Shown here in pieces: positions 3,614-52,854 of a stretch of 59,373 nucleotides of DNA. The stretch lies in assembly GCA_032718475.1 (NCBI GenBank), contig JAUCBJ010005375.1, forward strand, positions 1 through 59,373. Reading direction: 5' to 3'. The translations under genes were made by a program, and so were the position numbers. The stretch is from Nemertoderma westbladi. Lineage: Eukaryota; Animalia; Xenacoelomorpha. Each line of letters opens with the position of its first letter. The stretch's first letter is position 1. The notes below the pieces were generated by a model that had not been told where the DNA came from, did no database searches, and saw only the letters and a program-made list of their open reading frames with translations.

Positions 3614-6600
3614 TATGGGACTGAGGAGGACCAACTAAGGGAGTGAGGAGGGCCAACTATGGGAGTGAGGAGGGCCAACTATGGGAGTGAGGAGGACCAA
3701 CTATGGGACTGAGGAGGGCCAACTATGGGACTGAGGAGGACCAACTATGGGACTGAGGAGGACCAACTATGGGACTGAGGAGGACCAACTATGGGACTGA
3801 GGAGGACCAACTATGGGACTGAGGAGGACCAACTATGGGACTGAGGAGGACCAACTATGGGACTGAGGAGGACCAACTATGGGACTGAGGAGGACCAACT
3901 ATGGGACTGAGGAGGACCAACTATGGGACTGAGGAGGACCAACTATGGGAGTGAGGAGGACCAACTATGGGACTGAGGAGGACCAACTATTGGAATGAGG
4001 AGGACCAACTATGGGAGTGAGGAGGACCAACTATGGGACTGAGGAGGACCAACTATGGGACTGAGGAGGACCAACTATTGGAATGAAGAGGACCAACTAT
4101 GGGACTGAGGAGGACCAACTATGGGACTGAGGAGGACCAACTATGGGACTGAGGAGGACCAACTATGGGACTGAGGAGGACCAACTATTGGAATGAAGAG
4201 GACCAACTATGGGACTGAGGAGGACCAACTATGGGAGTCAGGAGGACCAAATATGGGACTGAGGAGGACCAACTATGGGACTGAGGAGGACCAACTATGG
4301 GACTGAGGAGGACCAACTATGGGACTGAGGAGGACCAACTATGGGACTGAGGAGGACCAACTATGGGACTGAGGAGGACCAACTATGGGACTGAGGAGGA
4401 CCAACTATGGGACTGAGGAGGACCAACTATGGGACTGAGGAGGACCAACTATGGGACTGAGGAGGACCAACTATGGGACTGAGGAGGACCAACTATGGGA
4501 CTGAGGAGGACCAACTATTGGAATGAAGAGGACCAACTATGGGACTGAGGAGGACCAACTATGGGAGTCAGGAGGACCAAATATGGGACTGAGGAGGACC
4601 AACTATGGGACTGAGGAGGACCAACTATGGGACTGAGGAGGACCAACTATGGGACTGAGGAGGACCAACTATGGGACTGAGGAGGACCAACTATGGGAGT
4701 CAGGAGGACCAAATATGGGACTGAGGAGGACCAACTATGGGAGTGAGGAGGACCAACTATGGTACTGAGGAGGACCAACTATGGGAGTCAGGAGGACCAA
4801 ATATGGGACTGAGGAGGACCAACTATGGGACTGAGGAGGACCAACTATGGGACTGAGGAGGACCAACTATGGGACTGAGGAGGACCAACTATGGGACTGA
4901 GGAGGACCAACTATGGGACTGATGAGGACCAACTATGGGACTGAGGAGGACCAACTATTGGACTGAGGAGGACCAACTATGGGAGTCCTGAGGACCAACT
5001 ATGGGACTGAGGAGGACCAACTATGGGACTGAGGAGGACCAACTATTGGACTGAGGAGGACCAACTATGGGACTGAGGAGGACCAACTATGGGACTGAGG
5101 AGGACCAACTATGGGAGTCAGGAGGACCAAATATGGGACTGAGGAGGACCAACTATTGGAATGAGGAGGACCAACTATGGGACTGAGGAGGACCAACTAT
5201 GGGACTGAGGAGGACCAACTATGGGAGTGAGGAGGACCAACTATGGGACTGAGGAGGACCAACTATGGGACTGAGGAGGACCAACTATGGGACTGAGGAG
5301 GACCAACTATGGGACTGAGGAGGACCAACTATGGGAGTCAGGAGGACCAAATATGGGACTGAGGAGGACCAACTAAGGGACTGAGGAGGACCAACTATGG
5401 GACTGAGGAGGACCAACTATGGGACTGAGGAGGACCAACTATGGGACTGAGGAGGACCAACTATGGGACTGAGGAGGACCAACTATGGGAGTGAGGAGGA
5501 CCAACTATTGGAATGAAGAGGACCAACTATGGGAGTGAGGAGGACCAACTATGGGACTGAGGAGGACCAACTATGGGAGTGAGGAGGACCAACTATGGGA
5601 CTGAGGAGGACCAACTATGGGAGTGAGGAGGACCAACTATGGGAGTGAGGAGGACCAACTATGGGACTGAGGAGGACCAACTATGGGACTGAGGAGGACC
5701 AACTATGGGAGTGAGGAGGACCAACTATGGGACTGAGGAGGACCAACTATGGGAGTGAGGAGGACCAACTATGGGACTGAGGAGGACCAACTATGGGGCT
5801 GAGGTGGACCAACTATGGGGCTGAGGAGGACCAACTATGGGACTGAGGAGGACCAACTATGGGACTGAGGAGGACCAACTATGGGACTGAGGAGGACCAA
5901 CTATGGGACTGAGGAGGACCAACTATGGGAGTGAGGAGGACCAACTATTGGAATGAAGAGGACCAACTATGGGAGGGAGGAGGACCAACTATGGGACTGA
6001 GGAGGACCAACTATGGGACTGAGGAGGACCAACTATGGGGCTGAGGAGGACCAACTATGGGGCTGAGGAGGACCAACTATGGGGCTGAGGAGGACCAACT
6101 ATGGGACTGAGGAGGACCAACTATGGGACTGAGGAGGACCAACTATGGGACTGAGGAGGACCAACTATGGGAGTGAGGAGGACCAACTATTGGAATGAAG
6201 AGGACCAACTATGGGAGTGAGGAGGACCAACTATGGGACTGAGGAGGACCAACTAAGGGACTGAGGAGGACCAACTATGGGACTGAGGAGGACCAACTAT
6301 GGGACTGAGGAGGACCAACTCTGGGAGTGAGGAGGACCAACTATGGGACTGAGGAGGACCAACTATGGGACTGAGGAGGACCAACTATGGGACTGAGGAG
6401 GACCAACTATGGGACTGAGGAAGACCAACTATTGGAATGAGGAGGACCAACTATGGGACTGAGGAGGACCAACTATGGGACTGAGGAAGACCAACTATTG
6501 GAATGAGGAGGACCAACTATGGGACTGAGGAGGACCAACTATGGGACTGAGGAGGACCAACTATGGGACTGAGGAGGACCAACTCTGGGAGTGAGGAGGA

Positions 6601-7660
6601 CCAACTATGGGACTGAGGAGGACCAACTATTGGAATGAAGATGACCAACTATGGGACTGAGGAGGACCAACTATGGGACTGAGGAGGACCAACTATGGGA
6701 CTGAGGAGGACCAACTATGGGACTGATGAGGACCAACTATGGGAGTCAGGAGGACCAAATATGGGGCTGAGGAGGACCAACTATGGGACTGAGGAGGACC
6801 AACTATGGGACTGATGAGGACCAACTCTGGGAATGAGGAGGACCAACTATGGGACTGAGGAGGACCAACTATGGGACTGAGGAGGACCAACTATGGGACT
6901 GATGAGGACCAACTCTGGGAATGAGGAGGACCAACTATGGGACTGAGGAGGACCAACTATTGGAATGAGGAGGACCAACTATGGGACTGAGGAGGACCAA
7001 CTCTGGGAGTGAGGAGGACCAACTATGGGAGTGAGGAGGACCAACTATGGGAGTGAGGAGGACCAACTATGGGACTGAGGTGGACCAACTATGGGACTGA
7101 GGAGGACCAACTATGGGACTGAGGAGGACCAACTATGGGACTGAGGAGGACCAACTATGGGACTGAGGAGGACCAACTATGGGACTGAGGAGGACCAACT
7201 ATGGGACTGAGGAGGACCAACTATGGGACTGAGGAGGACCAACTATGGGACTGAGGAGGACCAACTATGGGACTGAGGAGGACCAACTATGGGACTGATG
7301 AGGACCAACTATGGGACTGAGGAGGACCAACTATGGGACTGATGAGGACCAACTCTGGGAGTGAGGAGGACCAACTATGGGACTGAGGAGGACCAACTAT
7401 TGGAATGAGGAGGACCAACTATGGGACTGAGGAGGACCAACTCTGGGAGTGAGGAGGACCAACTCTGGGAGTGAGGAGGACCAACTATGGGACTGAGGAG
7501 GACCAACTATTGGAATGAGGAGGACCAACTATGGGACTGAGGAGGACCAACTCTGGGAGTGAGGAGGACCAACTCTGGGAGTGAGGAGGACCAACTATGG
7601 GACTGAGGAGGATCAACTATGGGACTGAGGACCAACTATGGGACTGAGGAGGACCAACTA
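3614..7660. repeat. 22-bp minisatellite (GGACCAACTATGGGACTGAGGA)n, about 4 kb, roughly 180 units
   Basis: Tandem array read directly, with recurring variant units and no unique spacers. Confidence 0.97.
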
Positions 7661-8655: not shown

Positions 8656-9291
8656 TCACAGGACATCTTGTTTCTGTCCCAGTCTGCTGTTTCTCTGTCG
8701 GTTAACCTCAACTAGAACCGCCCTAAGAGCGGCCCCCAGTTGCTTTACGTCGTACGGACGTCCAACGGGAGGCACGTGTACAAACAGTGAGTTACCCTTG
8801 GTTTGGTCCAGAGACAAATAATAAGTGAACTCGCACAAATAGCGACCCGCATCGTTGGATGCCTCTATCTCCAACCCCGGGTCGCCATACTTTATCGCCC
8901 TGACTATCTCACCAACATCCAATTGCGTCTTCAGTTCATCAGTGGCGTCTCCCTTCCAATTGCAACAATGGTTCCTAGGCAACTCATCAATCACATCAGG
9001 CTTTAGGTAACCATTGTTACAGGCTAATTCCTCAATCTCGAGTTTGTGACACAATCCAACCCCAACGTGAACCATCATATTAGGGTTATATTTTTTATGC
9101 AGTTCTGGAATTCGTCGTTTTACATACTCGTAGTTTACTGGCAATTCTTCTATTATGATGTCGCATAATGGTATTGGCGGGAGTTTCAAACATTCCTGAA
9201 CAGCCAGCCAGCTAACGTTGACTTTATGGCCTTGGAAAGGACCAAACCCGGTAAGAACAATTGTGTTTTGATCAGTAGAAGTAGATCCCAT
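8656..9291 (-). CDS. PGPEP1: Pyroglutamyl-peptidase I (peptidase C15), single coding exon
   Basis: IVLTGFGPF..VNVSW, VHVGV, ELACNNGY, DAGRYLCEFTYY (catalytic Cys) and FVHVP (catalytic His). First true ATG is at 9291; the ORF-track start at 9297 is TTG. Confidence 0.92.
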   Translation of the reverse strand: MGSTSTDQNTIVLTGFGPFQGHKVNVSWLAVQECLKLPPIPLCDIIIEELPVNYEYVKRRIPELHKKYNPNMMVHVGVGLCHKLEIEELACNNGYLKPDVIDELPRNHCCNWKGDATDELKTQLDVGEIVRAIKYGDPGLEIEASNDAGRYLCEFTYYLSLDQTKGNSLFVHVPPVGRPYDVKQLGAALRAVLVEVNRQRNSRLGQKQDVL

Positions 9292-11666
9292 TTTCAAATT
9301 AATCGCAAATCCGTCTAATCTTTGTTTACGACTGAATTAGGCCTATATTATCTGATTATGTACCGGTATGTACAGATGTAAGATTGTATGATAGTTGAGC
9401 GTAAGACAGCAAGATGAGGACTATCGGTACTCACTCAGTTACTGCTATAATAACTAGGTTACAAAAGTGGCGGCCCAAACCCTAATTAAAGCAGTAATCA
9501 GGTAATTGAACTCTAACCCTTTGCCCTAAGTCATGAGGCTCTAATCTAATAAATTTTGTGTAATTTATTAGGCCTACACCAAAGTCAGAAAGTACAGTCC
9601 TGCAGTCTGACAGTACATAGGTACAGCCATGGCCTATATATTATATATAATATAGTAGGCCATGGTACAGCACAGGCTGCACAGATGAGGTAGGCCTACA
9701 TAGATATGCCCGTCAGTGGGTGCAGGTACTTTAACTATTTAGGATGTTGCTCATTGTCAGTTTGTTGCTCGTTGTGCATTTTACTGTTTTACACCTATCT
9801 ATGGTTTAGCATTTTACTGGTTTAGTACACCCTTGCAGCCTTGGTACAGATTATGGCAGGTACAAGCTGATATGTTGTCTGTTTGTTTTTAAATCTACCA
9901 CCAAATTCAGCAAACATATATGGGGAGAGCCACGAACTCTGAGAACCCTGGCATTAGCCCGTAAAATTGAGTAAGGGCCGATTCGGCTTATCTGTCTGTC
10001 GGCCGGTCTTTTTGAAAACACTATCAATGTATGCGTGCAGCGCAGCAGATAAAATGTTTTGAAAATTACAGTTAATACATAAGTTTCTTGGGGTGACTAC
10101 TGTATGACACTACAAAACAAAGACCCAAAAAATTAAGACCTGCATAAATATTGTAACATCTGTTGTTAAATTTCCTTTATTGTTTTGGTATTGGTATTGG
10201 TTTAATGGTGCTCAAAGTACAACATTCAAATTAAAATGAACAATAAAATAACACAATTAAATAACACAGACATATATGACATTACATACATACATTGACA
10301 TGACAGAGATTTGCAGTGTTAATTTGGTGCTATAAAAATGGTACTATTACTAAAATTATTATTAAGATACATTGCGCACCGGGGATAGCCTCTTAAGGTG
10401 GACCTTGTTTCCGAGAGGGTCCCTGTTGTTTGTCTCAGAGATAAAAGTACAGTATTTACAATATGAGATTACGTTTACATAAATAAACAATAAAATATGT
10501 ATTTACATTTCTTGCATAAACTACGGTAAGACAAATTTTGGTGCTTAAAAATCTTAAAAATCAGATGCGATTGATAGGTTCGAGCCGTTCGACGTCCAAT
10601 TTAAAAAATATAATTCTTGAATAAAATAATAATTAAACCGTGAAGCTGTAAAAGTATCAAATAAAATAAAAATAGTGTATGAATATTTACATTTCTTGCA
10701 TAAAATAATACAAAATTAGGGCCACAGACTGAAATATATTATAAAATTTATTCAGTAATGCAGGATATCATTCTTTTAATATTCGTGAACAAAATATTTA
10801 TTGTATAACATTAAAAACTATTACTTACATTGTAGTACTGTATTATTAAGTAAAAAATATATCATACATAAAATATTTTGAGTTGCTTTGATATAAATGA
10901 AAAAAATATGTTGTTTTGGTAAAAATAGAGTATGAATATGAATGGAGTATGAAAGTTAAAGTTTTAAAAATATATCTTAAGATAACTAAAAAGCAGGGCG
11001 GGATGTTAATCAAGTGAACACAGGTAATGTGATTTTGGGGCCGTCCAAGTATGACGTGTGCACTTTTCCCCAAAATGTTGACCCCCTCCCTCCCCTAAAT
11101 CAGATGTCATCAGATAGGAGTTGACCCCCCCCCCCCTCCCCTAGATCAGATTAAAATTTTCTTTGTAATAAACTATTATATTATGAAGATTATTTATAAT
11201 CACTTGTAAATCATTCAATTATTATTTTTAATCAAATTATGAATAAGGTATAAAATAAAAATAAGGTATAAAAAGGTATAGAGTTGTAGTAGGATAGCCT
11301 ATCGTTTACATACTTGTACCTGATGCGACAGCAGTTTATGAATGATAATAAACAAACATACAGTAAGCTAATAATAGGCCTATATGAACCGGTAGAGGTA
11401 CCAGTACTGCAGTCTCTAACAATCATTAGCTTAGGATTAATGTTTCATTTTCAGGCGAACCGCAGTACCGCAGTACCCCAGTAGCACGCGTCCTAATCAC
11501 TGAAACATGGTGACTGGTAACTGAAACCGAAGATCGTGCTACGGGGCTTAAAATAGAGGCATCCCATCCCATTGGATGCTATTTATAGATCCATACCCCT
11601 TTTCTTTCCCCCTTTTCTTACGCGGTCTTACCCCCAGCACAGAGAAGATCTTCCCCCAGCTCGCGC

Positions 11667-12398: not shown

Positions 12399-12588
12399 AC
12401 AAATAAACGAAAGTTAACACAGGTGTTTTGTGCTGGTCTTTATTATTTGGGTCTTTATTGTTTTGTATAGTCACCCAAGTTTCTTGCGAGAAAACACGAG
12501 GTGTTGAATGGAAATAAAATTTCCAAAAGGATTTTAAGACTTATCTAAGGGTTAAGGGGAAGCACGACGCAATCAAAATAGATTCCTC

Positions 12589-13773
12589 TGTAAAGGCTTT
12601 TGCGGATCTAGCTAGTCATTTTTCCCGCAAAGTACTCTGTAGGTGTTTTAGCGGACATAAAAAGCCGTTTTCTTACTGTGTAGGTGTTTTAGTGGACATA
12701 AAAAGCCATTTTTCTGTATGTGTACTTTAGCGGACATAACTAGCGATTTTATGCCGCAATACGCCAAAATACTCTTAATACAGTGTAGTTCAGATGACGA
12801 CATCTATCAGCTGATATGTCCACGTAGAGCTTTTCTTTGTTCTTTGTTCGGCTCGACCAATCAGAGCGATTTTCATTTTATTTGCACAGAAGCCTCTGGG
12901 AAATCGCGCAATGCATTATGGTCTTTGTTTACCTTTTTTCCTGAGCCCAGAACATTGGCTGTGGAATTATTCTGTGTTTCAGACTTTAGCCAAACATTAG
13001 AACGGCTTTGATCATAGAAACGTATAACTGTTATCATACTTGTCACATATTGTCATACCTATCATATCATACTATACATACCTTTCACCGCATTATTTTA
13101 CTGCTATTTACTGTCGGTTATTAATTGTTATCAGTTGATGGAATGTTGTTATATTTGGAGAATATCGATAAATAATCATCAAACCCCAATCTTCTTGATA
13201 TACTGAAGGTTAGAGAGACCGGTTACATATAGCAATTGCGACTTACATTATAGTGGTTTTGGAGTGAATTGAATGCTATTTTATAGACCCTACATGTGTC
13301 AGTTGCTGTTCTCCTTATATATGATTAAAATTAGTGAAGGTCGGCAGATCAGTGTGCAGCAGTGTGAGGTAGTGTGTATGAGTGTGACAGATAACAAAGC
13401 ATTTCCTAAAGAACGCGCCTTATACGTAAATCAATAGCCATCCCGTTGTGTTTAGTGTAAGTCATAACTCTGTTTACATACTTAGAGTGCCACGTCCTAA
13501 AGGAACTGTTAATATTTCCCGAAAGTGAATAATATTTGTCAGTGATATTATAGTAACGATCAATCGAATAATACAGTAGGTCTACACCGCAATAAGGTCA
13601 GAGCATCCGAATCCAGTCTCCCTTAACCGTGGGTGAATGATCGCGCATAGGCTGGCTTCGGCTAATGTAACTTTATGTGTATCAAATACTTGTTATAGGC
13701 TAAAGTCGATTTATAACCTAGAAGACACCTAAAATTGGCAGGTTAAGCTGCTAAAGGTCTAAAAGCGCGAACA
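12589..13773 (+). repeat. 5' LTR (1185 bp)
   Basis: TGTAAAGG...GCGAACA. Differs from the 3' LTR by about 13 substitutions and 2 single-base indels (counted by eye). Short tandem repeats at about 12638-12740 and a CCAAT box near 12857. Confidence 0.95.
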
Positions 13774-15688
13774 ATAACAGTTATAGCTTCTTTATTGCAA
13801 CGTAGGCAATAAAGCTGAATGTACCGGTCGACCGGTAACCAGTAGGCCTAACTACCTAACCACCCGAACCGGTACTTACAGCAGTACAGGTACATCAGTA
13901 TTATTTCGATTGTGATATTGTATATTGGTAGGCTGTTTAAGAGATTAGGGACTGTACACCCCTTGTTTCTTTTGGAGCTTATTTATTTCTGTCAGTTTTA
14001 TTTATTTGTAAGTTAATATTGAGCAGAAGGCGTGTAAACCCGCTCAAATTGTACAAATAATTTGTAGGCTGGATTGTTGTCTGGCTGTTGTCAGGTCTGA
14101 AGAGATTGCAGTGTGTGTAGAGTGTATGTCCGATAAAGTACTAGTTAGGAACGTGGGGGCATCCAGTGCTGTAAGGTAAATCCCCCCCCCGAAAGAATAA
14201 GTCGTACTACTCGGTTAGAACGCATACTAACTAACCATTTCGGAGTCTGCATATACTGTAGTTTATTTAGGCTTGATAGTAGTCTGCCAGGATTTGGTTT
14301 GTATTTTGTTTGTGTAGTCTGTACGGGTAGCGTAATATTTATTATTCAGAGTTTATGCGATTATTCGCAACATACATACCCGCCCCAAGTTTATTCCTAC
14401 AGTAATTGTGCTTGTTATACATACCGTTATAGTTAAATTAACCCCGGTACTACATCAGGGCTGTTCGGCGTAGGTAAAGACTGGTGATTTTATGCTCTGG
14501 TCACTCCGGCAGATACCGTGGTTCTTTTAGCTGTACAAGTATTTTTAACTGCTGGTTATTTGTTGTATAAGTACTTGTACCTAATTTAGGGTTTAGTGTA
14601 CAGTGCTTTCCGAAGGTAATTAGTGTGTAGGCAGTATATTTGTGTTGTAAAGTGGTTAATAGGCACGTTAGCTATAGTAGGCTGCGGTAATTAACTTCTA
14701 GGTAGGAATACTCCAGGTACATAACGTAGTACTTATAGCGCTACGGCTATAAGTCGTCAGATGGTGGTATTTTTCCTATCTAGACAACGCAATATATTTA
14801 CTACTGCTTTATTATTTTCAAATACCGAAGTATCCTGTCCGTTTGTAATAACCAGAAATTCTAACCCCTTGTTAGGCTGGTTTGTAGATTTCTTGTAAAA
14901 TTACCCCTAAAATTTGTACGTGTAAATTTTTGTGTTTATTTAGAGATTGTAATCTCACCCCGCAATTGTGCGTAATTTGTAGTAATAAGTAACTTAGGCA
15001 AGTAGAATTATGTGTTTTAGTGTCCAACAAGTAGCACTTCACTGAGAGCGTATAGCTTCTGTGTAGTGACTCCTTCCCAGAAATAATAACATTTATTTCA
15101 AACATTGACAAAAACCCATTATACGGGTATATATATATTATAAATCAACTCAAACCGATTTATAAAACAGTAGGCCTGTCATACATCAATTAGGTCTTAA
15201 TATCAGTCGGACTACTGCTTAAATAACGGTAATAAAGTAAAGTAAAGTAACCAAGTAACCCCTAAAATTCAGAAATTCAATTATTCTAAAATAATTGACA
15301 TACAGGTATTTACAATAGGCTTATTATATTTATTTGTATAAATTTAAGCTGAAATTATATACCGGTATTCTGTAATTAATTCTAGTTTATAATTATACTT
15401 ATATATTATAAGTGTAAGTTGTATACCGGTATTCACGATAGGCTTATTATATATTTATATATATTTGCGCTGAAATTATATACCGGTATTCTGTGACAAA
15501 CCTAGTCTGTAATAATACTTATATATATAATATAAGTGTATACTGGTATTCTAATATATTGTGTATATATATCGCGTTACATAGAGTAACGATATCGGTA
15601 ATTAATTACTAGGCTAACAGTGATACTGAATTACTAGACTTGCTTTAACTGTAATTATAGCAGTAGGCATTCAACTGTATAAACAAAC

Positions 15689-18600
15689 ATGTCTGACACA
15701 AAGCAAAACCTGTCAGACAGTCTCCTAGATACAACCATCTGTGACCCAGATAGGAGTGCTGAACGTTTGAGACCGAAGTTCAACTCACCTCCTACTGTAA
15801 GAAAGGTCACCCCTCCAGTAGTAATATCAGACCCTAGGCTAGTCCAACACCGTATGTCTATCATAGGCACTCGGGCTCAAGTCAAGTGGGACCAAGAAGC
15901 AGCTGTTAAACAGCAGCAACCCTCGAGCCGAGAACTTATTTCTCAGCGGCCCGATAGCTCCAGTAGTTCAGATGCTGTAGAGTTGACACCCGAGCGCGGA
16001 GCAAAGATGGCAGATGCGGTTTATTCGGATCCCCTTCTCATTCTTCCTGCAGCCGTACTCACTAGGGTATTGATTGCGGTGGAGGAACACCAAATTGATT
16101 GGGCGAGAAGTAAGCGATCGACCAAGGACAGTTATGCGGGATACACAAGGGAGGAACTGAAGTCTATTGTCGAGACGCAATGGAACTTCCCCGGACCCGG
16201 ACTCCCGTTTAACTTATCGGAAGCTGCCTGGGAGGACTTATACAGGATGGGAGTGACAAAAGACACTAATGATCCAGCTGTGTGGAAGAGGTCAGCAGCA
16301 GGATATGTACAGGGATTCTTCAGTTCTTTGGAGCGATTAGAGGAACAACTGTTTCGACAACCCCAAGGACCTCAAGAGCAGGGAGAGCTGCTTTATCAAG
16401 TTAGAGAAAGAATTCTAAGAATCAGACTAATCCTATCGGCCTTTGAGGAGGCTTCGAAAAGAAGACAAGACACGTCATTGCAAGTTGCCGTAAAGACTTG
16501 GTTCCAGCGGGTGGGTCTCAAGGTTCAAGGAATGGCCCAGTGGAAATCTCAGCTGGCTGAGCGCTCAACCCATGGAGAATCAACAGACGCTACCTTTTCT
16601 CAAGTGGAAAGCGAAGCGACAGCAGAGAAACCGCAGAAGAAGGATGCTATTGACATCTATCTGTCAGACTATCAACGATTTCTAGGTGATGAAGAGTTGA
16701 GGAGAAGGCTGGCTGGACTTCGTCCTAATAGTGAAGGAGCCAAGTTTGTGTTGGACGCAATAGATGCGGAAATGTTAGCTGCGAACCAAGCTAAATTTGA
16801 TGAAAGACTCCGCATCGCTAGGGTCCAAGAAGAACAGGTAAAGAAAAAACGTATAGAAGACAGAAAGACAGCAGCAGCGGCAGCGGCAGAAGTTGAAAGA
16901 AAAGCGGCAGCGGCAGCGGCAGTGGCAGCGGCAGAAGCGGAAAGAAAAGCGGCAGTGGCAGCGGCAGAAGCGGAAAGAAAAGCGGCAGAGGCAGTGGCAG
17001 AAGCAGAACGGAGAGCGTCTGAAGAGACCACCCAACTAGAGTTGGAAAATCTTCAAGAGAAGCAAGACTGCATAAATAAACAGTTAACAGCTAGTCGAAT
17101 GCAGATGATAAGTCGATCTACTCCCAAAAGGCAGGGATTTACATCATCTGATGAAGGCGATACCACCGATCCTGAAGGAGGAGGAAATAGATCTCGTCTA
17201 AGCAGGTGTAGAAGAATGCCCCACCGTCAGAAATTGCCTGATTTGCCCCCAGCTGTTAGAAGGCAACTAGCTAGCACAGACTTAGGTAGTACAGAACCCA
17301 CAGACCAAATTATTAGAGTAGAAAGACTCCCTACTATAGTAGATGAGCCTGAAATAATTAGGCCTATTCTCGAAGCCACCCCTTCGGTGATAGAGACACC
17401 TGTACTCCCAGAACCTACCTCTAAATTCCCTTTGCACAGCACTAAACTACCTGTGCCCAGCAGAACAGCCCCTGAGACAGTTCCTGTCCTGGACTCCGAG
17501 CGAAATATCAATGATTTGTCGCCCGTTGTCCCTCGTCTACCCGCTACTATGTTGGCGGCTCCCGCTTCGGCAGTCGAGTGGGTGGATGAGAGACGGAGGG
17601 GGATGGATCTCCTGCTCGGGCAGATGCAGGAGACTGTTCAACAGTTCAAGGGAACAGTAAGGGAAAGTAGGTTAGAGTTGCAAGAAGTGCAGCAGAATAT
17701 CGCGTTAGAACGCGATAAATTAGTAAATATACAAAAGGGTATACCACCACCCCCTGTAACAATGTGTCAACCTGTTAGGTCTGAAGTATTTCATGCGCAA
17801 GGTGTGGAGCCTACACGCATCTATACTGCTAGTGAAGTAGAAACTCCTATAGTAAACCCTATTAAGGGTAATTATAAACCTGTTGACAATGATATTCCAT
17901 ATATACCTGATCATAATCCGAGAAATTTATATACCGATAACTCGATATTAAATAACACGATGGCCCAAGAAAGTTTTACGCGTCAAATGGCTAGAACCGA
18001 AGCCCGTCAAGCGGTAAAAGTGGGAGAGATCGTCAAGTTCAATGGAGATGAGATGAAATGGTTACCTTTTAATGAATATTATAAAGATAACATACAGAAC
18101 TCTGTGCTATCTAATGGAGAGAAACTTAGATTCCTCATCGAGTGCTTGGAAGGATCTCCCAAGTTAATGGCGTTAAAGTTTATTGGACATCCAGATGGAT
18201 TAAGACAAGTTTGGAATACACTAAACATCAGGTATGGTAATAGGAATAACATAGCTAGGTATTTGTATGCGAAATTAATGGCGCCCCGAAAGTTTCTTAG
18301 CAGCGGGATTATAGAGTTTTCCGACGAGATTCAGGAGATCTGTAGACAACTAGATTGGTTAGGTAAGTCTCATGAATACCAGAATTCTATGGTTATTGGA
18401 GCCGTAGCATCTGCTTTGCCAAAGGATAGAGTAGGTACACGCTGGGACAAGAAAGTGTTATATATGATGGAACAACAACGAAGAGATCCTACCATGGCTG
18501 ATCTCATGTCATTCTTAGATGGAGAGGTAAAATTACAGCTCCTAAAGCAGTCCAGAGAGAAGACACCGGAAAATAAGGTAAGTGAGAAACCCGTTTCTAG

Positions 18601-19549
18601 GAGAAAGGTAACACCAGTGTGTTATACAGACGACGGCAAAAGCCAGGCTTCTCAAGAGGAGGACAGCGGGAAAGACACTGAAAGATCTTACTATGTCAAC
18701 AAAGCGCCTAAAGACGTAAGTAAATTTAAGTCTCGAACCAATGACAGGAGAGAACAGGTAAGAAAAACTCCTCCTACGTCTCCTAAGAGAATTCATGGAA
18801 GAAAGCCCGAGGAAAGAACGAGTGTGTACAATGTTACCCCAGGTAAGGTAAGTAACATCAAACCAAAATGTGTACTGTGCGACGGGCCCCACCGTTTGGG
18901 TGTGTGTGATGAGTTCCTGGGGAAGTCCCTAAAAGATAGATGTGAAGTCATGTGGGATAAGCGGTTGTGTTATAATTGCCTCAGACGAGGACACCAACGA
19001 CGAACCTGTTACTCCGACGCAAGGTGTGCTAAGTGCGGCGCGAAACATCATATCTTGTTGCACACTGAATTCGAAAGAAACAGCCCGAGTCAGGTAAGTG
19101 AGTCCGAACTACATGTCCAATTCAGTGATGTGAACGACACTGACCAAAGTTCTGAGATGGAAGGATTCTATACGGATGAATTCTCCGACGAAAACGAATC
19201 CTGTTACTTAATAAACACCGCAGTGTATCGAGCACTTACGTATGAGACAGAAACCGATAGTGAGCTCCCCCTAACTACTCCTGACCGACAACCATCTTGG
19301 AAAGCACCAACTTCCAATGTAGGAATCCGAGAATTTCCCGTAGTGCAGTTGAGAGTCCACGGGCCCGAAAAGAGCTATATAGTGAACGCCCTCCTTGACT
19401 CCGGCAGCACAGGAACATTCATCGACAAAGAACTAGCCGAAGACATCTTTGCTGGACAACCCAAGTTCCGAACTAAGTTGAACATGTCAGGAATTATGCA
19501 GGTTTGGAAATCTACAGTAACTACAGATTACTATGTAGGCGCGTTGTAG
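15689..19549 (+). CDS. BEL/Pao Gag-protease polyprotein (1286 aa)
   Basis: DUF1759-like capsid (KFNGDEMKWLPF..LSNGEKLRFLIECLEG); triple knuckle CVLCDGPHRLGVC / CYNCLRRGHQRRTC / CAKCGAKHHILLH; protease ALLDSGSTGTFI; long Ala/Glu coiled-coil N-terminal region. Confidence 0.92.
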   Translation: MSDTKQNLSDSLLDTTICDPDRSAERLRPKFNSPPTVRKVTPPVVISDPRLVQHRMSIIGTRAQVKWDQEAAVKQQQPSSRELISQRPDSSSSSDAVELTPERGAKMADAVYSDPLLILPAAVLTRVLIAVEEHQIDWARSKRSTKDSYAGYTREELKSIVETQWNFPGPGLPFNLSEAAWEDLYRMGVTKDTNDPAVWKRSAAGYVQGFFSSLERLEEQLFRQPQGPQEQGELLYQVRERILRIRLILSAFEEASKRRQDTSLQVAVKTWFQRVGLKVQGMAQWKSQLAERSTHGESTDATFSQVESEATAEKPQKKDAIDIYLSDYQRFLGDEELRRRLAGLRPNSEGAKFVLDAIDAEMLAANQAKFDERLRIARVQEEQVKKKRIEDRKTAAAAAAEVERKAAAAAAVAAAEAERKAAVAAAEAERKAAEAVAEAERRASEETTQLELENLQEKQDCINKQLTASRMQMISRSTPKRQGFTSSDEGDTTDPEGGGNRSRLSRCRRMPHRQKLPDLPPAVRRQLASTDLGSTEPTDQIIRVERLPTIVDEPEIIRPILEATPSVIETPVLPEPTSKFPLHSTKLPVPSRTAPETVPVLDSERNINDLSPVVPRLPATMLAAPASAVEWVDERRRGMDLLLGQMQETVQQFKGTVRESRLELQEVQQNIALERDKLVNIQKGIPPPPVTMCQPVRSEVFHAQGVEPTRIYTASEVETPIVNPIKGNYKPVDNDIPYIPDHNPRNLYTDNSILNNTMAQESFTRQMARTEARQAVKVGEIVKFNGDEMKWLPFNEYYKDNIQNSVLSNGEKLRFLIECLEGSPKLMALKFIGHPDGLRQVWNTLNIRYGNRNNIARYLYAKLMAPRKFLSSGIIEFSDEIQEICRQLDWLGKSHEYQNSMVIGAVASALPKDRVGTRWDKKVLYMMEQQRRDPTMADLMSFLDGEVKLQLLKQSREKTPENKVSEKPVSRRKVTPVCYTDDGKSQASQEEDSGKDTERSYYVNKAPKDVSKFKSRTNDRREQVRKTPPTSPKRIHGRKPEERTSVYNVTPGKVSNIKPKCVLCDGPHRLGVCDEFLGKSLKDRCEVMWDKRLCYNCLRRGHQRRTCYSDARCAKCGAKHHILLHTEFERNSPSQVSESELHVQFSDVNDTDQSSEMEGFYTDEFSDENESCYLINTAVYRALTYETETDSELPLTTPDRQPSWKAPTSNVGIREFPVVQLRVHGPEKSYIVNALLDSGSTGTFIDKELAEDIFAGQPKFRTKLNMSGIMQVWKSTVTTDYYVGAL

Positions 19550-19604
19550 GCCAGGTTATGTAGGCCAGGATGAACTAGGAGAATACAGTATAAGGTCAGT
19601 AAAA

Positions 19605-20621
19605 ATGGTGGCGATAAAGAACTTCGCTACCAGCCAAGTGGAACCTTATAACTGGGATGAGGACTATTTCACCCAGCAGCATAAGATACCTAGATTCAAC
19701 ACAGACTACCCTGGAGTGCAAATACTCATCGGCCAAAATGCGCATGAGGCGCTTGAGACATTGGAGAAACAGCCTGCTCAACCGCAACCACTGCAAACCT
19801 ATGCGGGAAGAACAAGAGTAGGTTGGTACCTCACTGGACCTTCCCGTAGGACACTCATGGAAAGGCTACCCAAAGATCAGGTCCATCAGGAGAGTGAATG
19901 GGAAGAAGACATCAGTGAGGGAGAGACGACCACAACTGAGGGAACACCATACTCCTCAGATAATGACGATATTAATTCTAATGTAGATCAATGGAGACAT
20001 TGCCCCGAGACGATTAATCTAGCCGACATCGCTTCCAGAGGAGCAACTCCTCAAGAACTGACAGATACTCCAGACTGGTTAGGTGGACCCGACTTCCTAA
20101 GTAAAGAAGATGAATGGCCTCCCCATCTTACCACGGCTGAGATTAGACAAGCCAAGAGAGCGGAGAAAGTCAAACCTAAAACCCGGACGAGTAAATCAAG
20201 GTTATTTAAACCCGTGATAGATCTGTCTGTACTACACATTGCCAGGGACGATGCTGTGGATCTAAACTCCCCCACCGCGAACAGATCTGTTGTGGAGAAC
20301 AGAGAGAGAGACTGGAGATCTGGAACACCAGACGTCTCGCAGGGACTCTCACCTCTCCTGCCGGGAGCGATGGACCACTATAGCTCCTGGAATCGGCTTT
20401 GTAAGGCCGTCGTGTATTTGAAGCGATGTTTCTATCGTCACTATTCCAGGACGAAGAGGAAACCTGGAATTATATTCGAAACACAACAACTCAATCGCCC
20501 AGTTGGTCGTTTATGTTTACTGGAAAGAGACCGAGAACTGTCCGGAAACTATGGAAGGCAAGATACTCTTCCCACGACCACCTCCCTAATACAACCAACA
20601 TCCAGGGACTCCCCAACGTGA
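19605..20621 (+). pseudogene. Pol remnant: protease C-terminal part joined to the RNase H C-terminal tail; no RT core or integrase
   Basis: ILIGQN..RTRVGWYLTGP (BEL post-protease motif), then QWRHCPETINLADIASRG..WLGGPDFL (BEL RNase H end) and YSSWNRLCKAVVYLKR. No YxDD or HHCC/DDE motif seen. Confidence 0.8.
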
Positions 20622-22324
20622 CAGCGTCTGGAGTGGGTGTGTGACTATATTATTTCATATATTTTTATTATTTTATATTTATGTATGTATTATTATGTAA
20701 TTTTATTATAATCGTTTTCTTTAATTTTATTTAGTAGAATGTTATTTTAGCGATTATCTAGTAGATTAGTGCAATATATATTAGTCTTATTACTTAATTA
20801 CTTATATATTATATATTTGGTGCGACGGCGAGAAATAATTATTTTTCTCTTTCCTTACTGTCCGTATCATATTATAAATACGTGACTACAGTAAGATGAA
20901 ATATCCATACTTATTAAAGTACAATAAAGCTCCTACTATATTCAAGTATTATTGGTAAGTAGAGTATTAGGAATGCAAAGTTCAGATCCTCGTGTCTCGG
21001 CTAAACCAAGCTCTGGGTAGACCTTGGAAACGACTTGCCTCTTCTCACTGACATTGCTTCTTGCGATATTGCTCTCATACCGTATATTAAATAATACATA
21101 TAGTAGCGTGATGTCCCTTTAACAGTAGCGTAAAACGCAAAATAAATCTGTTAAACCCTTTGACCATCTGTAATTCTAGTCAATTAAGATATCGCGGCAC
21201 CCACCGATATACTTGAAAGACAAAATTCTAGAATCAGTGGTTAACGTCCCCAGACAAGTTCTGGAATAAACCGGTGCCCATCTTAAATATTAAACATTAA
21301 TATTTATAAAAATCTGTCAAACAGATGCAATAGAGTAATTACTTACAAGTTAACTCTAGAAAATCTACAAATTAAAATCTGTGAAATTTTAGATCCTTTA
21401 AAATTTTAGTCTACTAAGATATCGTAGCACTTACCGATACTCTTAAAAGGACAAATTTCCTAGAATTAAGGATCCTAATCCCCAGACATGCTCTGGAATA
21501 AAATTATGTCTATTTTAATATTAAATAATAAAATTTAAGGGAATAAATTTAAATTAATCTCTTTTAATGAATTTGATAAATTGTCATTTTATACAATTTA
21601 TAATATTCCCAAAATTCCATTAATTAATAAATCATGGGAGCGGAGATTCACCCTATTAAGTGTATTAGTGTGCGAGAATCTCCAATATATAGTCAATAGC
21701 CGATAAAATTCATAAAATCATGTATAAAGAGGAATATTGACAATTAAAGAATTACTATTAAATAGCATCCCAGATCTGTATGCATGAGAATTACCCTAAT
21801 TCTACTGCTAGCTTTCCATAATGTCACCATGGCAACAACCACGCTAGAATTAGAAGTGAGTTAAAAGAACAATAAAGGCTTGCCCCATTGAATAGCATAA
21901 GGAATAAATAGCACACTGCTAGTATCCAAGGATACCCAATAATAACGTGGCATTCTGGAAGGCACTTGACTAACGGACAAATGGCCCGAATGTGTGCGGT
22001 TTGTGACAGTTGTGTGGAATTTGTGCGTTTATAGGTGAATGTTACTACTACAGTGTGTTTACAGTAGCGAGTCGCAATTGTGAAAGTAGCCCTAACTCTG
22101 CAGTAAGAACCTGAAGTAAATCTTAGCCCTTGGGATGGACAGTGGAGTGACTCGCGCTGGTTGTTATTGTCGTTGTGCAGCTACTATGTTGGCGATAGGC
22201 ACAGCGGCGACAGTACATCAGCGCTGAGGATCTTGCGCTGTCCGGGGGCCATGAGGGGTAGGCAGCGATGCCCGCTAGCCTAATTATAAACTCATTATGA
22301 TATTGATAAACTCATATAGCAGCT

Positions 22325-23869
22325 ATGACTGAGTTGATAGAAGATGATCTTGGTATCAGGGAGCGATATACTCTACCTTTACAAGCGTTTGTTGATAGCT
22401 TGATACGCGGCGACGCTAGTCCAACTACTACGGAGGACGATGGTCGTTATATCGAACCGCCGATGTCCCAGGAGCAACTTACGCGTGAATTGGACTATAG
22501 AAAATTCACCGCTCACTATACGCATCGTAATGATACGTATATGGACTTCTTAACTACTGGCCATCCTATCGATTTACACGATACGGACGATGTAGACACC
22601 GAAAGGGAAATGGTTTTATTTAAATATCATACCCAGCGGAGTCGGAACGATAAACCGAGAATAGAACACGAGAACTATATTCGAAACCGACTCGAAAGAG
22701 AAGACGTTAAAGAACCGGATAAATGCAGTGACTCCAACGTATATTTGGAATTCTTGAGAGAAACATTGTAAAACCGAATAAATATCACCCGCGTTTCCCC
22801 TACAAGACGTGCGTCTTTGGTATTATTGCGATGAATGCCCAAGACCCAACCAACCAACAGAAAGACATAAACATCCGCGGAGACGTTGCTTTAAACACGG
22901 TTTTACTCGCTATATTTATGGGAGTTTCGAGCGAAACTTGTTCAATGTATCACCTACGCTCGTTCGATTCAACCGATCCTTAAATAAACCTATGATCAGA
23001 GTTCTGGAATACTCCGTCAGACCTCATCCTTCCCTAGTTAGACCTCAGACTCTTGATCCTAATAGTATCACAGATCCTCCCGAACTGTACTCACTGTTCA
23101 AAGATCTAGTGTTACCCGAACAGTTAGTCGGTGGCACTCCGGTTGTGGGCTCCCTAGATATTGGCCCATCTTACCTAGCCGGATTGGGACGCGGACATCT
23201 AATATCGCCATTCAACCGTATCATCGTCCCGGTTTAACCCGATACAACCTGTCACCGAGGAGGAGGAGAGAGTTGTACGAAACGCGTTGGACACTATTCG
23301 TCAAAAGATCAGAAAGGGAACCTACAATTGTTTAGAGAAACGTAAATTGCAGCAGCAAGTCCAAGCGGTAAACGAATTAGCTTTATCTCAGTTCGATCAG
23401 GAAATCCAGAATCTCTAAGAAGATATCGAACTTGAGCGACCCTACTCTCTAAAAGAGTTTTAGACGAATGCTTCCAACGACAAGCGGAGGAAAATCAGCT
23501 CGAGGAGAAGCATATCGATTCCTATAGAGCCCGAGAACGCGAGTTGAAAAGAATCATCAAACCGAGGAAATTCTCACTACTCACGGTCCACCTACCGCTA
23601 TCGTTCAGACGACTCGTCAGGGACCATTAGGAGCTGCTGTCCTAAAACGCGCTCTAAAGGCCGTTAGACCTCACTCCACTGAGGTCGATCAACCAGGTAC
23701 CTCGACCGGCGGATACACCGACCGTAATCCTAAACCTTCCGATGCAATTGTATTGCACCCTTCACCCAGGAGTTATAGCCCTCCTAGTAAAGTGGCTCGC
23801 CCCAAAGAGAAAAGGACTCTTACTAGCCTCAAAAAACTGCGTAAATGCTGTCCGCGCAAGAAAGACTAA
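22325..23869 (+). pseudogene. Degenerate accessory ORF(s) of unknown function in the 3' (env) position of the LTR element
   Basis: Consecutive open frames 22325-22771, 22809-23237 and 23528-23869 (ending KKLRKCCPRKKD-stop), separated by stops or frameshifts; less AT-rich than the flanks. Confidence 0.5.
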
Positions 23870-23947
23870 CTGTTTAGAGTATTTTTATATTTTAGAAACT
23901 GTGATTTTTTATATTTTATAGAATTAAATCCCATTTTCTGGGAGCGG

Positions 23948-25132
23948 TGTAAAGGCTTTTTGCGGATCTAGCTAGTCATTTTTCCCGCAAAGTACTCTGT
24001 AGGTGTTTTAGCGGACATAAAAAGCCGTTTTCTTACTGTGTAGGTGTTTTAGTGGACATAAAAAGCCATTTTTCTGTATGTGTACTTTAGCGGACATAAC
24101 TAGCGATTTTATGCCGCAATACGCCAAAATACTCTTAATACAGTGTAGTTCAGATGACGACATCTATCAGCTGATATGTCCACGTAGAGCTTTTTTTTGT
24201 TCTTTGTTCGGCTCGACCAATCAGAGCGATTTTCATTTTATTTGCACAGAAGCCTCCGGGAAATCGCGCAATGCATTATGGTCTCTGTTTACCTTTTTTC
24301 CTGAGCCCAGAACATCGGCTGTGGAATTATTCTGTGTTTCAGACTTTAGCCAAACATTAGAACGGCTTTGATCATAGAAACGTATAACTGTTATCATACT
24401 TGTCACATATTGTCATACCTATCATATCATACTATACATACCTTTCACCACATTATTTTACTGCTATTTACTGTCGGTTATTAATTGTTATCAGTTGATG
24501 GAATGTTGTTATATTTGGAGAATATCGATAAATAATCATCAAACCCCAATCTTCTTGATATACTGAAGGTTAGAGAGACCGGTTACATATAGCAATTGCG
24601 ACTTACATTATAGTGGTTTTGGAGTGAATTGAATGCTATTTCATAGACCCTACATGTGTCAGTTGCTGTTCTCCTTATATATGATTAAAATTAGTGAAGG
24701 TCGGCAGATCAGTGTGCAGCAGTGTGAGGTAGTGTGTATGAGTGTGACAGATAACAAAGCATTTCCTAAAGAATGCGCCTTATACGTAAATCAATAGCCA
24801 TCCCGTTGTGTTTAGTGTAAGTCATAACTCTGTTTACATACTTAGAGCGCCACGTCCTACAGGAACTGTTAATATTTCCCGAAAGTGAATAATATTTGTC
24901 AGAGATATTATAGTAACGATCAATCGAATAATACAGTAGGTCTACACCGCAATAAGGTCAGAGCATCCGAATCCAGTCTCCCTTAACCGTGGGTGAATGA
25001 TCGCGCATAGGCTGGCTACGGCTAATGTAACTTATGTGTATCAAATACTTGTTATAGGCTAAAGTCGATTTATAACCTAGAAGACACCTAAATTTGGCAG
25101 GTTAAACTGCTAAAGGTCTAAAAGCGCGAACA
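23948..25132 (+). repeat. 3' LTR (1185 bp)
   Basis: Direct repeat of 12589-13773, preceded by a short purine-rich GGGAGCGG tract and followed by TSD TCCTC. Confidence 0.95.
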
Positions 25133-25987
25133 TCCTCTCCTGGACAATATCAAAGAAAATAATAGCTGATTTATCAAAAATAAAACTAACCTGTTCTAGT
25201 GAATTTATTGCGTATTTTGGTTGCAGTTCTAGAATAACTAACGCTCCTTTAATTCCTACTTCATAATTAACATTGTTTATCTTCGAGACGAGATACCAAT
25301 TCGCCGAGACTAGATTTACGTTAATACACCCCACGCCCGCGCCACACACACACACCCACATCCCTCCTACCTCACCCGAAAATGTGGTGCCTGCTGAATT
25401 GACTTTCCTGCACTACCTGACTGACAGTGAGACGGGACAGAACGCATGCCGCTGTCACTTCCAGCTCCAGGCTTCCTACGCTCTCATGCAACATTAACAT
25501 AATTCAGTAACTCAAATAATTAATAATTCAAATAATTCTGTAACTGAAATAGGCTACATACTTTTAGTGGAATAATACTACAATAGGACAACTCTATGCT
25601 AGGCCTATTACAGTATTACTGCAGTAGGCCTATTACCGGTAATACAGTAATACTGTAATAGCCTACATTTTACGTTATTTTACAAATTACTATTAGATTA
25701 TCTGATTATGGGTGAGAATGATAGTATAATAACATAGTTGATACAATGGATTATCTGATTATGGTATTACTGTATTATTGCCCGACTGACTACCGCTAGC
25801 TGATTCGTATTGTGTATTACATTCCGACATTAGCATTGCCGGTAAATACTGATACTGCATACTGAACTAACTAAATTAACTAAAACTACAGTAAATGCTG
25901 TATCATTACAGTATTACTATTACAGTATTAAGTGCAAGTGCAATAGGTCTGTAGTACCTGAGTCTGTGAGTACTGTGACTGTAGATA

Positions 25988-30819: not shown

Positions 30820-33165
30820 GGATAAGGTGGGTGGGAATGTAGGATGATGGGAAGGCGGGTGGGAAGATGGGAATGTGAGAGGGTGGATGTGAATGTGGGA
30901 AGATGCAGGGGAAGGTGGCATTCCCATCTTCTAGGGCTAGGGGGTATAACGTATAAAGTCATATCGAGAAACATTGGGGCTACCAACCTATTTTGTAGAG
31001 AATTTTATTTACTGTATTTTAGAGTTGTTTGTACTGGTGGTATGTTAGTTAGCCCTAAGTAGGAAGGAATACCCTGACCTTATACTTGAGCTAAATCAGT
31101 AATGTAGGGAGGGCATTTTTGTGATCAGCATTAAATTCTCTACAAAATAGGTTGGTAGCCACAGATTTTAATTGTGGTCACCGAAAAAATCCTCTATACC
31201 CCCTACCCCTACATCTTCCTACATTCTCATCTTCCCAGATTCCAATCCTCATTCCCACCCCTTCCTCCATTCCCATCTTCCCACCCACCTTCCCACATTC
31301 TCACCCACATTCCCATCTTCCTACATTCCCACCCATCTTCCTACATTCCCATCTCCCCACCCACCTTCCCATCATCCTACATTCCCACCCATCTTCCTAC
31401 ATTCCCATCTCCCACCCACCTTCCCTCATCCTCACCCACATTCCCATTTTCCTACATTCCTATCCACCTTCCCACATTCCCATCATCCTACATTCCCATC
31501 TCCCCACCCACCTTCCCATCATCCTACATTCCCACCCATCTTCCTACATTCCCATCTTCCCACCCACCTTCCCTCATCCTCACCCACATTCCCATTTTCC
31601 TACATTCCTATCCACCTTCCCACATTCCCATCATCCTACATTCCCATCTCCCCACCCACCTTCCCACCCTCCCACATTCCCATCTCCCCACCCATCTTCC
31701 CACATTCCTATCCACTTTCTCATCATCCTACATCCCCACCCACATTCCCATCTTCCCACTTTCCCACCCATCTTCCTACATTCCCATCTTCCCACCCACC
31801 TTCCCTCATCCTCACCCACATTCCCATTTTCCTACATTCCTATCCACCTTCCCACATTCCCATCATCCTACATTCCCATCTCCCCACCCACCTTCCCACC
31901 CTCCCACATTCCCATCTCCCCACCCATCTTCCCACATTCCTATCCACTTTCTCATCATCCTACATTCCCACCCACATTCCCATCTTCCCACTTTCCCACC
32001 CATCTTCCTACATTCACATCTTCCCAACCAACTTCCCCACATTCCCACCCACCTTCCCATCTTCCTACATACCCATCCACCTTCCCACATTCCCATCATC
32101 CTACATTCCCACCCATCTTCCTACATTCCCATCTCCCCACCCACCTTCCCATCATCCTACATTCCCACCCATCTTCCTACATTCCCATCTTCCCACCCAC
32201 CTTCCCTCATCCTCACCCACATTCCCATTTTCCTACATTCCTATCCACCTTCCCACATTCCCATCATCCTACATTCCCATCTCCCCACCCACCTTCCCAT
32301 CATCCTACATTCCCATCTCCCCACCCATCTTCCCACATTCCTATCCACTTTCTCATCATCCTACATTCCCACCCACATTCCCATCTTCCCACTTTCCCAC
32401 CCATCTTCCTACATTCACATCTTCCCAACCAACTACCCCACATTCCCACCCACCTTCCCATCTTCCTACATACCCATCCACCTTCCCACATTCACATTAT
32501 CCTATATTCCCACCCATCTTCCTACATTCCCATTTTCCCACCCATCTTCCCACATTCTCACCCACATTCCCATCCACCTTCCTACATTCCCATCCACCTT
32601 CCCACATTCCCATCATCCTACATTCCCACCCATCTTCCTACATTCCCATCTTCCTACATTCTCATCTTCCCACCCACCTTCCCATCATCCTACAGTCCCA
32701 CCCATCTTCCTACATTCCCATCTTCCTACATTCTCATCTTCCCACCCACCTTCCCATCATCCTATATTCCCACCCATCTTCCTACATTCCCATCTTCCCA
32801 CATTCCCATCCACCTTCCCACATTCCCATCCTCCTTCCCACATTCCCATCATCCTACAGTCCCACCCATCTTCCTACATTCCCATCTTCCTACATTCTCA
32901 TCTTCCCACCCACCTTCCCACATTCCCATCCACCCTCCCACATTCCCATCTTCCCACCCACCTTCCCACATTCCCACCCACCTTCCCACCCATCTTCCTA
33001 CATTCCCATCTTCCCACCCACATTCACATCCACCTTCCCATCCATCTACCCACATTCCCCCATCTTCCTACATTTCCACTGACCTACCCACCAACCGACC
33101 AACCAACCGACCAACCAACCGACCAACCCACCGACCTACCCACCCACCAACCGACCGAGCCACCC
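30820..33165. repeat. Inverted-repeat element whose right arm is expanded into about 2 kb of G-poor low-complexity repeat
   Basis: GGCTACCAACCTATTTTGTAGAGAATTT (about 30978-31006) is inverted at about 31133-31160. G-rich units at 30820-30910 are the reverse complement of the CCCACCCATCTTCCTACATT-type units filling 31210-33080. Confidence 0.85.
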
Positions 33166-41108: not shown

Positions 41109-41249
41109 ATATTCGCGCCATATTACTCATATTAATTAGCTAATTTATTAATTGTAAGTATTAATCAGTGAATTAGGCCTGAATTAAATGATTAGAGTAC
41201 TGCAGGCAACGCTCAGTCTCAAACACAGATATTCCTAGAAATCATAATA

Positions 41250-48311: not shown

Positions 48312-48471
48312 ACAGATCCATATTATTTAACTGTACTATGTATTGGTAGTAATAGTATTATGTACAGAACGCAAACACTTTTTATAGCTATGATTTGTAT
48401 ATTAAATTATTAATTACCGGTAATGGCAACGGTTTCCATATAGCACTACAATTTTTTTAACCTTAATCATT

Positions 48472-52702: not shown

Positions 52703-52854
52703 AATGATTAAGGTTAAAAAAATATAGTGCTATATGGAACCGTTGCCATTAATTAATAATTTAATATACAAATCATAGCTATAAAAAGTGTTTGCGTTCT
52801 GTACATAATACTATTACTACCAATACATAATACAGTTAAATGATATGGGTCTGT

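Follow-up and report, generated by a model that had tools for sequence, protein, structure and literature searches.

A non-autonomous BEL/Pao retrotransposon with sequence features suggesting self-primed reverse transcription

We propose that a BEL/Pao-type LTR retrotransposon found in a 59,373-nucleotide stretch of DNA (hereafter, the window) probably primes minus-strand DNA synthesis with its own RNA, the candidate primer being a 12-mer in the LTR whose exact reverse complement begins at the first base after the 5′ LTR. A first-pass annotation of the same DNA had put forward self-priming from this complementarity. The suggestion is strengthened by a match at the LTR edge that chance does not readily produce, by an edge of sequence conservation at 13034–13036, and by corresponding pairing in 12 of 12 distant families, all of which are lines of evidence drawn from sequence.

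Results

Self-comparison of the window defined an LTR pair (12589–13773 and 23948–25132) of 1185 bp and 98.7% identity, differing by 13 substitutions and two indels, none of them within 12975–13085 (Table 1). The LTRs have TG..CA termini, and TCCTC stands at both flanks of the element, a 5-bp target duplication of the size typical of BEL/Pao elements. The Gag domain of ORF1 matched DUF1759 with an E value of 8e-12, and the ten homologues matched by ORF1 were BEL/Pao-type proteins of 23–44% identity, with DUF1759 in eight and PF05380 in nine. No close relative of ORF1 was found, the best in the tree set described below reaching 26% over 396 columns. ORF2 matches these relatives just past the protease (e.g., P0001 633–671) and picks up again where the RNase H region ends (1236–1291), with nothing between: no match to the reverse transcriptase (RT) or to most of RNase H was found between the ORF2 remnants, and none to integrase anywhere in the element. 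The start of ORF1 (15689–18000, ~780 residues) and several 3′ ORFs (22310–23869) had no Pfam match, the ORF at 22782 had no usable Atlas match, and none of four window proteins was present in the cluster collection.

The element thus combines TG..CA LTRs, a short target duplication, and a BEL/Pao-type Gag and protease with the lack of a PR-RT-RH-IN pol gene, its remnants matching BEL/Pao pol on either side of the gap; its proteins are of BEL/Pao type and not the Ty3/gypsy proteins that define the Tf1/sushi group. Judged by these features, the element at 12589–25132 is a young, internally deleted, non-autonomous BEL/Pao derivative and not a complete member. The first-pass annotation had assigned it to BEL/Pao, in agreement with the DUF1759 Gag, the protease and the pol remnants, and had not recorded the loss of RT and integrase. 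In sequencing runs, contigs of the family reached depths thousands of times that of the flanks, which is not a copy number but points to a large family.

Table 1 Positions of features of the element and of host-gene ORFs in the window
Feature	Positions	Strand	Basis or detail
5′ target-site duplication, 5 bp	12584–12588	.	TCCTC at both ends
5′ LTR, 1185 bp, TG..CA	12589–13773	+	LTR alignment
41-bp tandem repeats close to LTR start, likely U3	12633–12750	+	repeat search
CCAAT motif, 166 nt 5′ of LTR 12-mer	12857–12861	+	motif
Family-conserved block; right edge at 12-mer 3′ end	12975–13034	+	DNA runs
Possible imperfect extension of pairing, with 13786–13791	13016–13021	+	folding
LTR 12-mer, candidate self-primer; cut predicted after 13034	13023–13034	+	complementarity, conservation edge
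G-poor tract, hypervariable among family copies	13035–13085	+	DNA runs
Primer-binding position, exact reverse complement of LTR 12-mer, offset 0, no TGG	13774–13785	+	
Predicted hairpin immediately 3′ of primer site	13790–13814	+	inspection, folding
ORF1: N-terminal region without Pfam match, BEL/Pao Gag (DUF1759), Cys-His knuckles, aspartic protease motif	15689–19549	+	
ORF2: pol remnant	19539–20621	+	matches to relatives
Short ORFs of unknown nature, 3′ internal region	22310–23869	+	
Polypurine tract, 8 nt, purine-rich, adjoins 3′ LTR	23940–23947	+	
3′ LTR, second 12-mer copy at 24383–24394	23948–25132	+	LTR alignment
3′ target-site duplication, 5 bp	25133–25137	.	TCCTC
Pyroglutamyl peptidase ORF	8656–9336		
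Cas1p-type acyltransferase ORF	25985–28462		
Enolase ORF	34865–36241		
NYD-SP28 protein ORF	41196–43475		
Fibrinogen-C protein ORF, first	47250–48326		
Fibrinogen-C protein ORF, second	52840–53895		

Positions 13774–13785 are the exact reverse complement of 13023–13034 and of 24383–24394, starting at offset 0 from the LTR end, with no ungapped extension beyond 12 nt. What the first-pass annotation had described is therefore accurate: the post-LTR 12 nt mirror a 12-mer of the LTR, present also in the 3′ LTR, and the pairing abuts the LTR boundary. Its placement of the LTR 12-mer downstream of a CCAAT motif (at 12857) likewise stands, as does its report that a TGG-type primer site is lacking, since the first TGG past the LTR lies at 13926, 152 nt away. 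With no TGG before that point, the 18-nt primer-binding site (PBS) expected of BEL/Pao elements, which would pair with the 3′ terminus of a host tRNA-Arg or tRNA-Gly, is not found either. The position holds what characterizes Tf1-type elements, a PBS complementary to an LTR segment with its end at the LTR edge. The exact LTR-edge pattern was searched for in metagenome contigs, and nothing was found.

Among 20,000 dinucleotide shuffles of the LTR, a 12-nt match was reached by four at offset 0 and by 11 at offsets 0–3; elsewhere, it was reached at none of 10,110 internal positions and at 8 of 35,600 positions outside the element. We consider it very unlikely that the match arose by accident from palindromic, AT-rich bases and that the variable tract described below reflects ordinary low-complexity drift. 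Such an accident would be helped by the A or T at 10 of the 12 bases, by the low complexity of the tract, by the eight unrelated positions that also reach 12 nt, and by the many LTR elements inspected in a genome scan, but it is opposed by a chance probability for the 12-mer match of ~2–5 in 10,000, by a variability edge that independently meets the 12-mer end, and by the signature in all 12 testable relative families. The caution voiced earlier that the motif is quasi-palindromic is justified, in that TAACNGTTA occurs four times in the window (three times as the 12-mer sites and once at 33480), yet the inverted match is 12 of 12 and a direct match fails at the central base.

An internal tRNA-like primer gene was considered and rejected: ARAGORN found no tRNA-like gene in the element or the window, and Rfam returned one weak match (E 0.21), far under the gathering score. 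The hairpin beside the primer site has a 9-bp stem (by inspection) and a 7-nt loop and holds an AATAAA at 13808; the LTR is without AATAAA and has only an ATTAAA at 13324.

We searched for the same arrangement in distant relatives. Seven BEL/Pao polyproteins were aligned, and a search with the alignment led to 87 loci, 80 from metagenomes and seven from genome contigs; viral contigs gave no confirmed BEL/Pao locus. Both LTR ends were set by the repeat itself in 15 of the 87 loci (tier 1), which were picked by eye for a CA or TA terminus in each LTR copy with divergence beyond it, and which form 12 families by LTR similarity. Only the LTR start was defined in 13 further loci (tier 2), and 59 loci were excluded because their flanks were short, a repeat was lacking, or the ends were ambiguous. 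A target duplication was present in three of the eight tier-1 loci checked. The seven loci L081–L087 are BEL/Pao elements on contigs assigned to bacterial genome bins, in all likelihood mis-binned animal host DNA.

In all 15 tier-1 loci, and thus in 12 of 12 families, the post-LTR sequence at offset 1–4 pairs with the locus's own LTR over 10–16 nt. The pairing is contiguous in L007 and L035, and in the other families (L008, L011/L012, L018, L033, L036/L040, L039, L053, L067, L075, and L083/L084) it forms only across the junction of a predicted GT..AG LTR intron. Pairing with an exon-exon junction in 10 of 12 distant families suggests a primer built by splicing. When near-canonical donors alone are allowed, the pairing spans 10–15 nt, and nine of the ten spliced families have a GTAAG or GTGAG donor. 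Control pairings of at least 10 nt with any donor arose in 11 of 234 cross-family pairs and at 1 of 160 shifted sites, and the cross-family control with near-canonical donors only gave 4 of 180; some cross-family matches link related families, such as L033 and L039. A TGG lay within 8 nt of the LTR end in one of 13 checked (L018, offset 1), the TAACNG motif occurred in only two of 13 checked, and several of the relatives' primer sites are also quasi-palindromic. Tier 2 is weaker, its ends being chosen by the match itself as the best of 11–44 candidates; 12 of the 13 loci reach 11–14 nt, L045 reaches 11 at offset 5, and the inferred ends have a TGG in 0 of 13. A splice-junction primer was rejected for the window element, whose best match is unspliced with no AG within or just before the 12-mer.

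Compensatory change, which the first-pass annotation had named as a check on self-priming, gave a mixed picture: across distant BEL/Pao families pairing is kept with different sequences, and within the element's own family no such change was seen among the 40 variant rows listed of 442. Between the sister loci L083 and L084 the swap effect is modest: three first-exon-side bases and the matching primer-site bases differ, and own combinations pair at 11/11 compared with 8/10 when swapped. The window element departs from its relatives in the distance from primer to LTR end (739 nt versus 44–278 nt in 23 relatives) and in the pairing offset (0 versus 1–4 in tier 1). The stretch after the primer is below the LTR's own G content in 16 of 24 LTRs, and a G-poor tract is not general. 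The base that follows the primer 3′ end (13035 here) is C in 16 of 24 LTRs, the window element among them. In a Gag-protease tree, built from 22 of 42 rows after 20 in which the protease pattern was not found had been dropped, the nine tested loci fall within the starred clade and the window element lies beyond it, its long branch flagged as unsure. Given this placement, the tested relatives show a trait of the superfamily and not one of the element's own family.

Folding models gave a mixed picture of the primer/PBS helix. Its probability was 0.83–0.95 in 3 of 14 folded segments (start at or after 12990, end at 13830) and did not exceed 0.01 in the remaining 11, and the helix was missing from every segment that started at or before 12960 or ran to 14100. 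The helix is part of the minimum-energy and centroid structures of 13016–13830; the whole-region folding z-score was −0.57. The duplex has an energy of −11.4 kcal/mol, or −14.4 kcal/mol with the extension 13016–13021/13786–13791, which contains one bulge and one mismatch and has a pair probability of at most 0.54. Such a modelled pattern would fit poorly with an upstream transcription start unless proteins or co-transcriptional folding help.

A long-range helix that is not robust in folding could also mean that the pairing was selected for a structural role, whether leader closure, pairing of the RNA ends through 24383–24394, or dimerisation or packaging, and that another primer is used. Each 12-mer is quasi-palindromic, with a possible self-dimer (−5.9 and −6.4 kcal/mol), several relatives' primer sites share this character, and in the accessible portion of one study a palindrome and a hairpin stand in place of the PBS in fungal GalEa elements, with no mechanism shown (PMC5445492). 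We nevertheless regard a purely structural role as quite unlikely, because it has no need for a helix that ends 0–4 nt from the LTR edge in every family or is restored by exon joining in 10 of 12 families, and because the true duplex is much stronger than the self-dimers.

Variation within the family was examined in a set of seven sequencing runs, none recorded as RNA, by mapping four of them to 12500–14300 and three, some of them the same, to 12975–13065. One run, X5, may be RNA, and its coverage carried no information about the transcription start. Across the 1,801 bases of the longer region, 265 places had a variant at 3% or more (X1). Within 12975–13065, the listing gave no substitution at or above 1%, and its indels 5′ of the 12-mer were confined to 12991, 13003, and 13007; an empty variant table is not proof of identity, as single pieces hold up to seven unplaced differences, and one X4 piece has six in 12993–13033. 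At the 3′ end of the 12-mer, summed contig depth dropped 48-fold in X1 (67,650 at 13031–13034 to 1,419 at 13039–13042) and 88-fold in X3 (54,389 to 615 at the same positions), and its recovery in X1 was gradual (678 at 13062, 8,810 at 13074, and 25,465 at 13084). Among the pieces listed, out of 253, 15 of 19 ended at 13032–13040, and among the loose ends listed, out of 20, 10 of 14 left after 13034–13045, with A/C-rich continuations that were unlike the window copy and unlike one another. An X4 contig of 305 nt had no differences over 12975–13036, and one matching it in length and depth had 11 substitutions in 13040–13084. Taken together, the piece ends, the depth drop, and the contig differences place the onset of a hypervariable tract at most two bases from the 12-mer 3′ end: the sequence is conserved through 13034–13036 and then hypervariable for ~50 nt. 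The tract at 13035–13085 is of low complexity, with two G in 51 nt.

We interpret this tract as the likely 5′ edge of the strong-stop DNA copy, since self-priming would place both the template cut and the end of strong-stop DNA at the conservation edge. An edge at 13034–13036 would also be expected from a transcription start site at 13035 or from low-complexity drift. The former belongs to an account in which transcription begins at ~13035–13036, the LTR 12-mer is a core-promoter protein site with the post-LTR copy as a second site, and a host RNA, for instance a tRNA half, acts as primer. The edge fits a start site as well as it fits a cut site, the conserved block reaches well upstream of the 12-mer, and both 12-mers contain the palindromic TAACNGTTA, which presumably resembles OVO or Myb sites. 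Half-tRNA priming is known in Copia elements, according to the part of PMC6317226 available, and host-tRNA priming is what the ICTV profile gives (PMC8742986). This account is unlikely in our judgment: it leaves unexplained a perfect inverted match that ends precisely at the LTR edge, as well as self-complementarity with different sequences in 12 of 12 other families, with TAACNG in only two of 13.

Returning to self-priming, a transcription start at ~13023, which the first-pass annotation had proposed on the model of Tf1, is probably not needed for it. In the spliced families only 3–9 nt of the primer precede the intron, which would make an improbable first exon, and a TATA-like box lies 88–240 nt 5′ of the primer in 5 of 24 LTRs; the short pre-intron part and the position of the box make the relatives' primers look internal to the leader, so a start upstream of 13023 is compatible with self-priming in the window element. 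No TATA-like box was found upstream of the LTR 12-mer in the window element, and the CCAAT motif, 166 nt 5′ of 13023, is further away than is usual for a start at 13023. We find a strict Tf1-like start at 13023 doubtful, and we treat an upstream start with an internal primer as a serious candidate that falls short of probable.

The remainder of the window carries genes and repeats. A pyroglutamyl peptidase, a Cas1p-type acyltransferase, an enolase, an NYD-SP28 protein, and two fibrinogen-C proteins are each encoded by a single uninterrupted ORF (Table 1). They point to an intron-poor animal host, which may bear on the intron-free primer of the window element. The enolase is no more than 78% identical to its counterparts in many animals. 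An exact 18-bp duplication at 34895–34931 repeats the first codons at the start of the enolase ORF. On the minus strand, 49144–52045 holds a LINE-like element whose endonuclease and RT domains are distributed over three frames. A 22-bp satellite of 184 copies with 94% matches occupies 3614–7660, and low-complexity arrays lie at 198–1591 and 31246–33078.

Discussion

In the mechanism that we envisage, RT and RNase H would likely be lent by an autonomous partner. The transcript would begin at or, more likely, upstream of 13023, and its 13023–13034 segment would anneal with 13774–13785. Cleavage of the RNA after 13034 would then leave a 3′-OH at the LTR edge, from which RT would copy 13773 back to 13035 before transfer to the 3′ repeat. 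The hypervariable tract from 13035 would arise from copying errors, or from relaxed constraint, where the template ends. The available part of one study reports that Tf1 RT extends most cDNA 3′ ends with non-templated bases (PMC11042837), and by analogy such addition offers a possible cause for the variability of the tract. No literature on a hypervariable tract of this kind was found.

We also put forward, tentatively and with the expectation that it may well prove wrong, a broader view in which self-priming is a main replication mode in a large part of BEL/Pao. Unlike that of Tf1, the primer would be internal to the leader, 3′-cut, and often built by splicing; the window element would be an intron-free form in a separate lineage, and the tract at 13035–13085 a scar of error-prone copying from which the cut site could be read in genome data alone.

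The ICTV profile of Belpaoviridae describes host-tRNA priming across the family, at an 18-nt site that accepts tRNA-Arg or tRNA-Gly, and it calls replication in the family poorly understood (PMC8742986). The window element resembles Belpaoviridae in its DUF1759 Gag, Cys-His knuckles, protease, remnant of the RNase H end, LTR within 0.2–1.2 kb, and short polypurine tract, and differs from them in lacking the tRNA-Arg or tRNA-Gly site, RT, and integrase and in its length of 12.5 kb (PMC8742986).

Self-priming is described for Tf1, Tf2, Tj1, and Tcn1 in the accessible sections of PMC7175516 and PMC4600332, the first of which gives the Tf1 primer as the first 11 nt of the RNA. As in Tf1 and Tf2 of Schizosaccharomyces pombe, Tj1, and the Tf1/sushi and Tcn1 groups, the window element has no tRNA site, and the 11–12 nt that immediately follow the 5′ LTR are complementary to LTR sequence. 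The Tf1/sushi and Tcn1 groups are Ty3/gypsy elements, whereas the window element is BEL/Pao, with a 739-nt loop and with relatives whose primers look internal. The first five bases of its primer site (13774–13778) are those given for the Tf1 PBS, which begins ATAAC in the excerpt available of PMC11042837; the identity may be coincidental or may stem from a cleavage preference common to both.

For plant Tcn1 and Copia TAR elements (Houba, Osr-1), self-priming has been predicted, as far as the accessible text of PMC6317226 goes. The Copia TAR case is alike in resting on sequence complementarity outside Tf1/sushi and differs in superfamily, and it indicates that self-priming can originate repeatedly; finding it here is less surprising for that. 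Fungal GalEa Copia elements also lack a tRNA site and carry a palindrome and hairpin just past the 5′ LTR; an LTR complement was not found for GalEa in the available portion of PMC5445492, in contrast to the perfect one of the window element. For biv-TRIM elements, the part of PMC6934838 at hand gives no PBS and shows no mechanism. A term search of the accessible text of a BEL/Pao survey (PMC3118150) and of the Sinbad paper (PMC554778) found no mention of tRNA priming, and the available parts of PMC3601003, PMC9094657, and PMC12451622 held nothing on BEL/Pao priming. The first-pass annotation knew of no description of self-priming in BEL/Pao, and our literature search, with thin coverage of subscription papers, Repbase reports, and supplements, likewise found no report. 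A different route to tRNA independence has reportedly been proposed for the BEL-like element Cer7 of C. elegans, which is said to encode its own tRNA-like primer.

If BEL/Pao elements self-prime, they would form a third LTR superfamily to do so, beside Ty3/gypsy, in which self-priming is shown for Tf1, and Copia, in which it is predicted. Elements that PBS-based annotation discards would then be explained, and such elements would be independent of host tRNA primers. In the relatives, the splice-junction form would couple reverse-transcription initiation to the spliceosome.
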